DNA of 64,000 nt from Klebsiella phage RCIP0020: the sequence record OR532814.1; one strand, given 5' to 3'. The notes beneath the pieces are model-generated. The model did not search any database, was not told the origin of the DNA, and saw only the letters and a program-made list of their open reading frames with translations. The translations under genes were made by a program, and so were the position numbers. How positions within the stretch are numbered: the stretch's first letter is position 1; the number at the start of each line of letters is the position of its first letter. Below are positions 35,321 to 35,827 of the stretch, piece by piece.

Positions 35321-35827
35321 TTAATTAGCCTTACGAGGATCGAAATGAACGACAACGATCGGGTAATCACCAGTCACCTCATTAATAATGCGCTTAATGA
35401 GTTCCCAGTCGCCCCCAGCGAGGCCAGCACCGATTAAAGGTGTGATGATAGGCTTTCCAGTCTTAACGGCGTCAGCAAGCCCTACAGCCTGTTTAAAAGC
35501 ATTGCCGATTGCGTCATAATCGACACGCGGCCCAGGTGTCCAGAAATCATATTGAGTATATGCATTGAAAACAATGTTGCCTTTTTCGCCAATGTAAACA
35601 GAACAAGTTCCGAGCTTATCACGGGAACCTTTTAACGTATTGGCATCAACTTGAAATGCACCAGGAATACGATCGCGGATCTCGCGAGCAATGCCAGCGC
35701 CCATATTGCAATAACAGTTGCATCCGTGGATCAGGTGGCCTTCACCGTTCAGATACATATTGACAGCATTACCTTTCACTTCTTTAATGATCATTTTTAT
35801 TTTTCCGATATAGTAGGGCCACAACAA
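35321..35827 (-). CDS. macro-domain protein (ADP-ribose binding/processing)
   Basis: Pattern LIHGCNCYCNMGAGIAREI ... GTCSVYIG ... IITPLIGAGLAGGDW aligns with the macro fold (NAAN...GGGV..AI ... vAFPaIstGiyG). Confidence 0.55.
   Translation of the reverse strand: MLWPYYIGKIKMIIKEVKGNAVNMYLNGEGHLIHGCNCYCNMGAGIAREIRDRIPGAFQVDANTLKGSRDKLGTCSVYIGEKGNIVFNAYTQYDFWTPGPRVDYDAIGNAFKQAVGLADAVKTGKPIITPLIGAGLAGGDWELIKRIINEVTGDYPIVVVHFDPRKAN

Follow-up and report, generated by a model that had tools for sequence, protein, structure and literature searches.

The window analysed here is a stretch of 64,000 nucleotides from Klebsiella phage RCIP0020 (sequence record OR532814.1), which belongs to the T4-like genus Slopekvirus, and our subject is a gene within it that encodes a macrodomain protein of 157 aa (35321..35794, minus strand). 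Pfam, AlphaFold2, Foldseek, homology to T4 Tk.4 and the annotation of Klebsiella phage PMBT1 together identify the product as the counterpart of Tk.4, also called AdfM, within PHROG 335. In a DNA comparison the region 34400-36100 is 99.8% identical to the Klebsiella phages PMBT1 and P-KP2, and the gene was found in 131 phage records at the DNA level and in 2933 at the protein level (tblastn). The longest mechanical open reading frame (ORF) at this position, 35321..35827 on the minus strand, begins at a TTG (35827) and is the gene as delimited in the first-pass annotation, which a model had made from the sequence alone. The ORF is real, but its true start is the ATG at 35794, which is where T4 Tk.4 and the other homologs begin, as do the genes annotated in GenBank for PMBT1 (gp216) and the closely related Slopekvirus Tauntaun; the protein read from this ATG starts MIIKEVKG. 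The in-frame extension back to the TTG (35795..35827, minus strand) lies inside an upstream ORF of 32 aa and most likely does not belong to the translated macro protein. This hydrophobic 32-aa ORF (35784..35882, minus strand; translation MSVGVQFTVLWILVILMGLVVALLYRKNKNDH*) overlaps the macro start by 11 nt, is a coding sequence in the Tauntaun annotation, and is annotated in some Slopekvirus records while absent from the annotation of others; its translation is likely coupled with that of the macro gene. A promoter scan was uninformative, with six sigma-70-like sites around the gene against 7.7 expected.

Downstream, the gene is separated from the thymidine kinase gene tk (34430..35038, minus strand; annotated thymidine kinase, 53% identity to T4 Tk) by one 95-aa ORF (35031..35318), so that the earlier description of the macro gene as lying next to tk is nearly but not strictly right. 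Upstream, beyond small ORFs, lies an annotated homolog of vs, the valyl-tRNA synthetase modifier (36092..36415, minus strand). T4 Vs gave no tblastn match in the window at E<=1e-3, and this second anchor is therefore one of annotation only, in PMBT1 and Tauntaun. The order in the window is thus tk, the 95-aa ORF, macro, small ORFs and the annotated vs, as compared with tk, tk.1-3, tk.4 and vs in T4, where tk.4 (NP_049723) is located between tk.3 and vs and is annotated as ‘contains A1pp phosphatase motif’. RB32, RB14, RB3 and Sf23 show the same order, the tblastn match falling in each under tk.4 beside vs. T4 Tk.4 aligns with the Slopekvirus protein over its full length (E 8e-28, 157 aligned positions), scores 27.7 bits against the Pfam Macro model, where the cut-off is 22, and likewise falls in PHROG 335. 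From homology and position we therefore conclude that the macro gene is the Slopekvirus counterpart of tk.4, and the statement in the first-pass annotation that T4 lacks a macro domain does not hold. Both are single-domain proteins of ~155 aa in the tk-vs slot and share the H-G-C-N-C, Y-T-Q and I-G-A-G motifs; they differ in the Gly-rich loop (IGAGIGKGNW in T4, IGAGLAGGDW here), and their identity is only 32%.

That the protein has a macro fold had been proposed from the sequence pattern, together with structure prediction as a way to check it, and both the profile searches and the predicted structure bear this out. The match to Pfam PF01661 (Macro) scores 30.1 bits, where the gathering score is 22, and extends over model positions 1-117 of 118; PHROG 335, which is labelled ‘phosphatase’, matches at 6.5e-57. 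An AlphaFold2 model computed from an alignment of 52 homologs, drawn from a search with 3638 hits, has a predicted local distance difference test score (pLDDT) of 96.2 and a predicted TM-score (pTM) of 0.91. When this model was compared with the PDB by Foldseek, 182 matches were obtained at E<=1e-3, and the best 50 of the 182 are all macrodomains or designed hydrolases, headed by TARG1 (E 4.6e-10), Poa1p (1.4e-9), the TaqDarG macrodomain (1e-8) and SCO6735 (4e-7), along with BT1257; TM-scores for the top macrodomain matches lie at 0.72-0.77, over a three-layer alpha/beta/alpha fold. A sequence search of the PDB returned BT1257, Poa1p, SCO6735 and DarG macrodomains, and the 52-homolog profile matched BT1257 (2.7e-19), SCO6735 (3.1e-17), TARG1 (2e-11) and DarG (1.3e-10). 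The PADLOC DarG model matches at 1.7e-7, whereas the NCBIfam DarG model NF048014 reaches 23.2 bits against a cut-off of 250 and is matched in its macro part only (model positions 15-151 of 338). The macro assignment is far beyond chance, and the gene product is a single-domain protein with nothing beyond the macro domain. The exact protein is listed in UniRef as ‘Macro domain-containing protein’, and copies in Klebsiella assemblies carry the same NCBI label. A paper from 2023 likewise describes what is apparently this gene as coding for a macrodomain protein. One database protein of 189 aa (P0002) is 97% identical over 84% of the macro protein yet has a thymidine-kinase Pfam domain on record, which probably reflects a frameshift or fusion in the gene calling of a single assembly.

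In a profile alignment His23 and Asn26 of the macro protein align with SCO6735 His24 and Asn27, Gln81 aligns with SCO6735 Gln85 and TARG1 Lys84, Ala126 aligns with TARG1 Asp125 (the TARG1 sequence used for numbering was verified against the PDB), and the loop G122-A-G-L-A-G-G-D-W130 aligns with GCGLAGGTW of SCO6735. H23, N26, Q81 and G122-W130 are invariant across the 52 homologs. From the conserved Gly-rich loops together with H23, N26 and Q81 the protein is predicted to bind ADP-ribose (ADPR) or a derivative of it. The Gln is common to the macro protein, T4 Tk.4 and the Adpp protein of Vibrio phage Gary discussed below; PhiKZ gp104 has a DarG-type Lys at this position. Previous work on SCO6735 placed its Gln85 at the position of DarG Lys80 and TARG1 Lys84, found a Q85A mutant to be inactive, and showed that the enzyme efficiently removes thymidine-linked ADP-ribose from DNA while also acting on protein substrates (PMC9411070). 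Because Gln81 stands at the catalytic-Lys position as it does in SCO6735, the reaction probably follows the SCO6735 pattern and not that of DarG or TARG1.

The individual relatives compare with the macro protein as follows. SCO6735 (Streptomyces coelicolor, 5E3B) and BT1257 (Bacteroides thetaiotaomicron, 2FG1/2AFC) are the best PDB profile matches and, like the phage protein, are stand-alone macro proteins with the His/Asn pair, a Gln for the catalytic Lys and a GxGLAGGxW loop; they differ in being bacterial housekeeping or stress proteins of ~24-26% identity to the macro protein, BT1257 having no known function, and in the loop after HxCN, which reads DLGGWGKGF where the phage protein has CYCNMGAGIA. 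The DarG macrodomain (Thermus aquaticus 5M31/5M3E, M. tuberculosis 5M3I) has the same fold (TM 0.76 at the Foldseek E-value given above), and PhiKZ gp104 is, in addition to its membership of PHROG 335, a free-standing phage macro protein, although only 24% identical to ours over 128 residues. The substrate class is probably the same as that of DarG and gp104, but both keep the catalytic Lys (PTK; K80 in TaqDarG) where the macro protein has Gln81, and DarG moreover carries a C-terminal DarT-binding domain and has an adjacent darT, whereas the neighbours here are tk, vs and small phage ORFs. Human TARG1/OARD1 (4J5S) differs in its Lys84/Asp125 dyad, which is replaced by Gln81/Ala126. Yeast Poa1p (6LFQ) shares the N-terminal IHxCNC..GxGIA motif with identical numbering, H23 included, but its phmmer match (E 2e-5) is confined to the N-terminal third, it has a Ser at the Gln81 position, its S30 is N30 in the macro protein, and it is 20 residues longer.

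Several published studies speak to the function of the family. A transposon screen in T4 found tk.4 to be the single gene needed on a host with DarTG2, and a clean tk.4 knock-out sensitised the phage to DarTG2, the gene being renamed adfM (bioRxiv 10.1101/2025.11.20.689424). The target that DarT2 ADP-ribosylates is thymidine in single-stranded DNA, a modification undone by the DarG macrodomain, and a DarT-macro operon has been reported in Klebsiella pneumoniae (PMC5179494). PhiKZ gp104, which has also been named AdfM, strips DarT2 marks from DNA in vitro (PMC13309987). A second ADP-ribosylation eraser, AdfN, takes ADP-ribose off guanine and acts against DarTG1 (PMC11825919), and the window holds a homolog of it. 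We favour, with a probability of roughly 55%, the explanation that the Slopekvirus macro protein works alongside AdfN in counter-defence, as a hydrolase that frees phage DNA modified by DarT2 from its ADP-ribose. The grounds are its tk.4 orthology and synteny, an active site of the SCO6735 type, and the lack of NARP1, the pathway in which a phosphatase would have a use. The rival readings taken up below are further weakened in that Tauntaun has no homologs of Adps, Alt, ModA or ModB. The suggestion of the first-pass annotation that the gene serves counter-defence against ADP-ribosylating toxins accordingly agrees with the genetics of the T4 homolog against DarTG2; that the macro protein itself acts on DarT2-modified DNA we infer. 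Under such a mechanism, host DarT2 of the DarTG2 system would ADP-ribosylate thymidines in single-stranded phage DNA and block its replication, and the macro protein, as an ‘orphan antitoxin’, would take the ADP-ribose off the thymidines, as the AdfN homolog would do for the guanine-linked ADP-ribose left by DarT1. The canonical macro cleft would hold the ADP-ribose moiety and cleavage would take place at the C1'' bond of its distal ribose, with Gln81 positioning substrate and water and no lysyl adduct being formed.

A different activity has been reported for another member of the same family. The RES-domain defence aRES, cloned from Klebsiella pneumoniae, splits NAD+ into nicotinamide and ADP-ribose-1''-phosphate (ADPR-1''-P), and Adpp, a macro protein present in 15% of NARP1 operons, was shown for Vibrio phage Gary to convert ADPR-1''-P to ADPR in vitro, so that NARP1 can rebuild NAD+, and to be needed to overcome aRES; NARP2 overcomes aRES alone, without a phosphatase, and the study looked at NARP1 operons only (bioRxiv 10.64898/2026.01.28.702374). 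Using the Gary Adpp sequence from the supplement of that preprint, we found it to be 37% identical to the macro protein (E 1e-27) and 35% identical to T4 Tk.4, and the macro protein, T4 Tk.4, Gary Adpp and PhiKZ gp104 all fall in PHROG 335. Gary Adpp equals the macro protein in length and agrees with it in its motifs, among them the Gln and the GLAGGDW loop; the surroundings differ, Gary Adpp being part of an Adps-macro-Namat operon and the macro gene having tk and vs on either side in a lineage without Adps. Judged by sequence, T4 AdfM and Gary Adpp, which were named independently in two preprints, are one family with two reported activities. The statement that AdfM and Adpp are one family and share the same catalytic motifs was not found in the papers cited here, and it goes beyond routine annotation.

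It could thus be argued that the Slopekvirus protein is an Adpp-type ADP-ribose-1''-phosphate phosphatase, either as its main role or as a second activity of the same active site, and that the ADPR it makes from ADPR-1''-P could be split by the Nudix domain of NatV to AMP and ribose-5-phosphate for use by Nampt and NatV in NARP2. We regard this, the main rival to the DarT2 explanation and one compatible with it, as rather unlikely. To the similarity to Gary Adpp, proven in vitro and needed against aRES, and the identical motifs (HxCNC..MGxGIA, KLG, N.YtQ and IGaGLAGGDW) may be added homologs flanked by Adps and Namat in annotated genomes of Acinetobacter and Vibrio phages, the presence of a NatV-like gene downstream on the same strand, the source of aRES in K. 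pneumoniae, and Poa1p among the top structural matches. Against it, Poa1p has Ser where the phage family has an invariant Gln, and T4 keeps tk.4, with a knock-out phenotype that concerns DarTG2. The gene moreover lies in the tk-vs slot of T4-like phages and not in a NARP operon. Tauntaun lacks Adps, by which NARP1 would make use of ADPR, and the pathway that its lineage does carry does not need ADPR and overcomes aRES alone (bioRxiv 10.64898/2026.01.28.702374).

This last argument depends on the NAD genes of the lineage. The bifunctional NatV-like protein, an NMN adenylyltransferase joined to a Nudix domain, is encoded 3.2 kb downstream of the macro gene (31018..32088, minus strand; CTP_transf_like 6.3e-11, NUDIX 4.4e-13), and the complete genome of Tauntaun encodes a NAMPT of 477 aa (7842..9275 of locus L013), the only NAMPT-family gene there, which is far from the macro gene (145.8 kb versus 82 kb in the record). 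Neither the window nor the complete Tauntaun sequence contains an Adps homolog. Because NAMPT and NatV are present and Adps is absent, the Slopekvirus lineage appears to carry NARP2 (Nampt plus NatV) and not NARP1.

We also surveyed gene neighbourhoods at the 80 closest viral loci. Five are Slopekvirus-like with tk, vs and NatV, 13 have Adps and Namat nearby, five have a NAMPT-family gene only, in two the macro gene is flanked by NatV and Nampt, and most others have none of these. The Adps-Namat and NatV-Nampt arrangements count in favour of the phosphatase explanation. In those two, both viral contigs (L075, 3545..6783; L078, 2669..7447), the macro homolog stands directly between NatV-like and Nampt-like genes and is hence NARP2-linked. 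In phages with NatV and Nampt the macro enzyme may supply ADP-ribose for the rebuilding of NAD+, which would be a new kind of role, tied to NARP2. We also entertain, tentatively and at odds well short of even, that the Slopekvirus protein is a dual-purpose enzyme cutting any C1''-linked group, whether thymine in DNA or phosphate, from ADP-ribose. Since both a DarT-macro operon and aRES are known from K. pneumoniae, DarTG2 and aRES are both plausible targets in the Klebsiella host.

Several observations weigh against our preferred explanation, DarT2 counter-defence, and need to be set beside the evidence for it. The support from T4 tk.4 is genetic only and comes from a preprint (bioRxiv 10.1101/2025.11.20.689424), the DarTG2-sensitive knock-out phenotype is T4's own, and in the literature we found no biochemistry of a Tk.4-type protein on DNA. 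The macro protein is at least as similar to Gary Adpp, a proven phosphatase, as to T4 Tk.4 (37% versus 32%), and the lysine with which DarG catalyses is missing from it. Among the 80 closest viral relatives 22 lie <=5 kb from a NAMPT-family gene, which ties a large part of the family to NAD metabolism. A neighbour-joining tree of 76 family members places the macro protein near T4 Tk.4, yet the exact clade of these two was recovered in 0 of 60 bootstrap replicates, as compared with 52 of 60 for the Slopekvirus-like group. Nor did we find a residue signature diagnostic of tk-linked as opposed to NARP1-linked members, which have all four motif blocks in common (HGCNC..MGxGIA, KLG, NAYTQ and IGAGLAGGDW). 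Phylogeny was dropped as an arbiter between AdfM-type and Adpp-type members because of the missing Tk.4 clade, and on the data from these alignments motifs and tree cannot decide between the two activities.

Bacterial homologs were considered as possible partners of DarT, but three chromosomal ones (45-55% identity) are stand-alone genes with no DarT/DUF4433 neighbour, and their context gives no clue to the substrate. One bacterial homolog (P0093), from Planctomycetes bacterium TBK1r (CP036432.1, locus L007 1..10459), lies near a microbial PARG, a HIT-helicase fusion and ARPP-1/ARPP-2, and the same neighbourhood contains two RlaP nucleotidyltransferases, of the family of T4 nrdC.11, which is also represented in the window at 28468..29475. 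This neighbourhood looks like an ADP-ribose-related conflict island.

Two further roles can be considered for the macro protein. The first starts from the suggestion in the first-pass annotation that the phage's own ADP-ribosylation of host proteins is regulated by it; the protein would then reverse or modulate such modification of host proteins or RNA and so oppose transferases of the Alt/ModA/ModB type. T4 does encode three ADP-ribosyltransferases in addition to Tk.4, and the top structural match, TARG1, removes ADP-ribose from proteins, on which SCO6735 acts too. No tblastn match to T4 Alt, ModA or ModB (E<=0.01) was found in the window or in the whole Tauntaun genome, however, and the family is present in many phages not known to carry such transferases, so that the suggestion finds no support in this lineage and we think it very improbable. 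The second is that the protein is an O-acetyl-ADP-ribose deacetylase or RNase III regulator of the MacroD/YmdB type, or else a non-catalytic sponge that binds immune signals derived from ADP-ribose, such as the gcADPR of Thoeris, and this seems to us more improbable still. JGI/IMG names on cluster members and many homologs do read ‘O-acetyl-ADP-ribose deacetylase (regulator of RNase III)’, but this is a generic COG name, and the nearest relatives by profile and fold are BT1257, SCO6735, TARG1, DarG and Poa1p and not MacroD/YmdB; a YmdB/MacroD-type deacetylase was rejected on the grounds that the generic label is all it has. Weak matches to the macro domain of ThsA (Pfam 19.6 bits; PADLOC ThsA E 0.031) would fit a sponge, but the Pfam ThsA_Macro score is below its cut-off of 25, for which reason a ThsA-like macro domain was likewise rejected, and the invariant putative catalytic residues H23, N26 and Q81 favour an enzyme.

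In its fold, its T4 counterpart and the counter-defence role of its family, all of which are already on record, the gene is an ordinary member of a known family. Slopekvirus copies are at present labelled ‘Phage protein’, ‘hypothetical’ or ‘phosphatase’, and a better name would be Tk.4/AdfM-family macrodomain counter-defence enzyme. Since sequence cannot split the AdfM/Adpp family, to which both DNA de-ADP-ribosylation and ADPR-1''-P dephosphorylation belong, any member needs both assays before it is named. Slopekviruses are candidates for Klebsiella phage therapy, which gives correct annotation a practical value: with the AdfN, Acb1 and NatV/Nampt homologs, the macro gene helps to predict which defences are overcome (DarTG1/2, CBASS and NAD+ depletion).

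The first-pass annotation listed NADAR, NatV-like, Nudix and 2H enzymes in the window besides the macro protein, and all of these are found. The NADAR gene (7661..8101, plus strand) encodes a homolog of AdfN/gp30.3 (42% identity, E 2e-27 to T4 30.3; Pfam Phage_30_3 7.4e-56), likely the partner enzyme against guanine-linked DNA ADP-ribosylation by DarT1. A stand-alone NUDIX hydrolase of 135 aa (52055..52462, minus strand; NUDIX 1.8e-14) is separate from the Nudix domain of the NatV-like protein, and the 2H-fold phosphodiesterase is a homolog of the anti-CBASS protein Acb1 (54568..55203, minus strand; Pfam PF23474, 2.3e-47). That these genes together make up one integrated set, as was also proposed, would go further than their presence; they are scattered over ~47 kb, and for each a separate counter-defence role is documented in T4-like phages.

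Two other loci on the minus strand of the window deserve mention. An ORF of 193 aa (50523..51104) contains a GmrSD_N (DUF262-type) restriction-endonuclease domain (9.4e-19) and adjoins an ORF of 304 aa without a Pfam match; the pair, which spans 49612..51104, may represent a phage-borne GmrSD-like nuclease split in two. The protein of 420 aa encoded at 44656..45918 has a SPASM iron-sulfur domain (3.2e-6), which suggests a radical-SAM-type enzyme.

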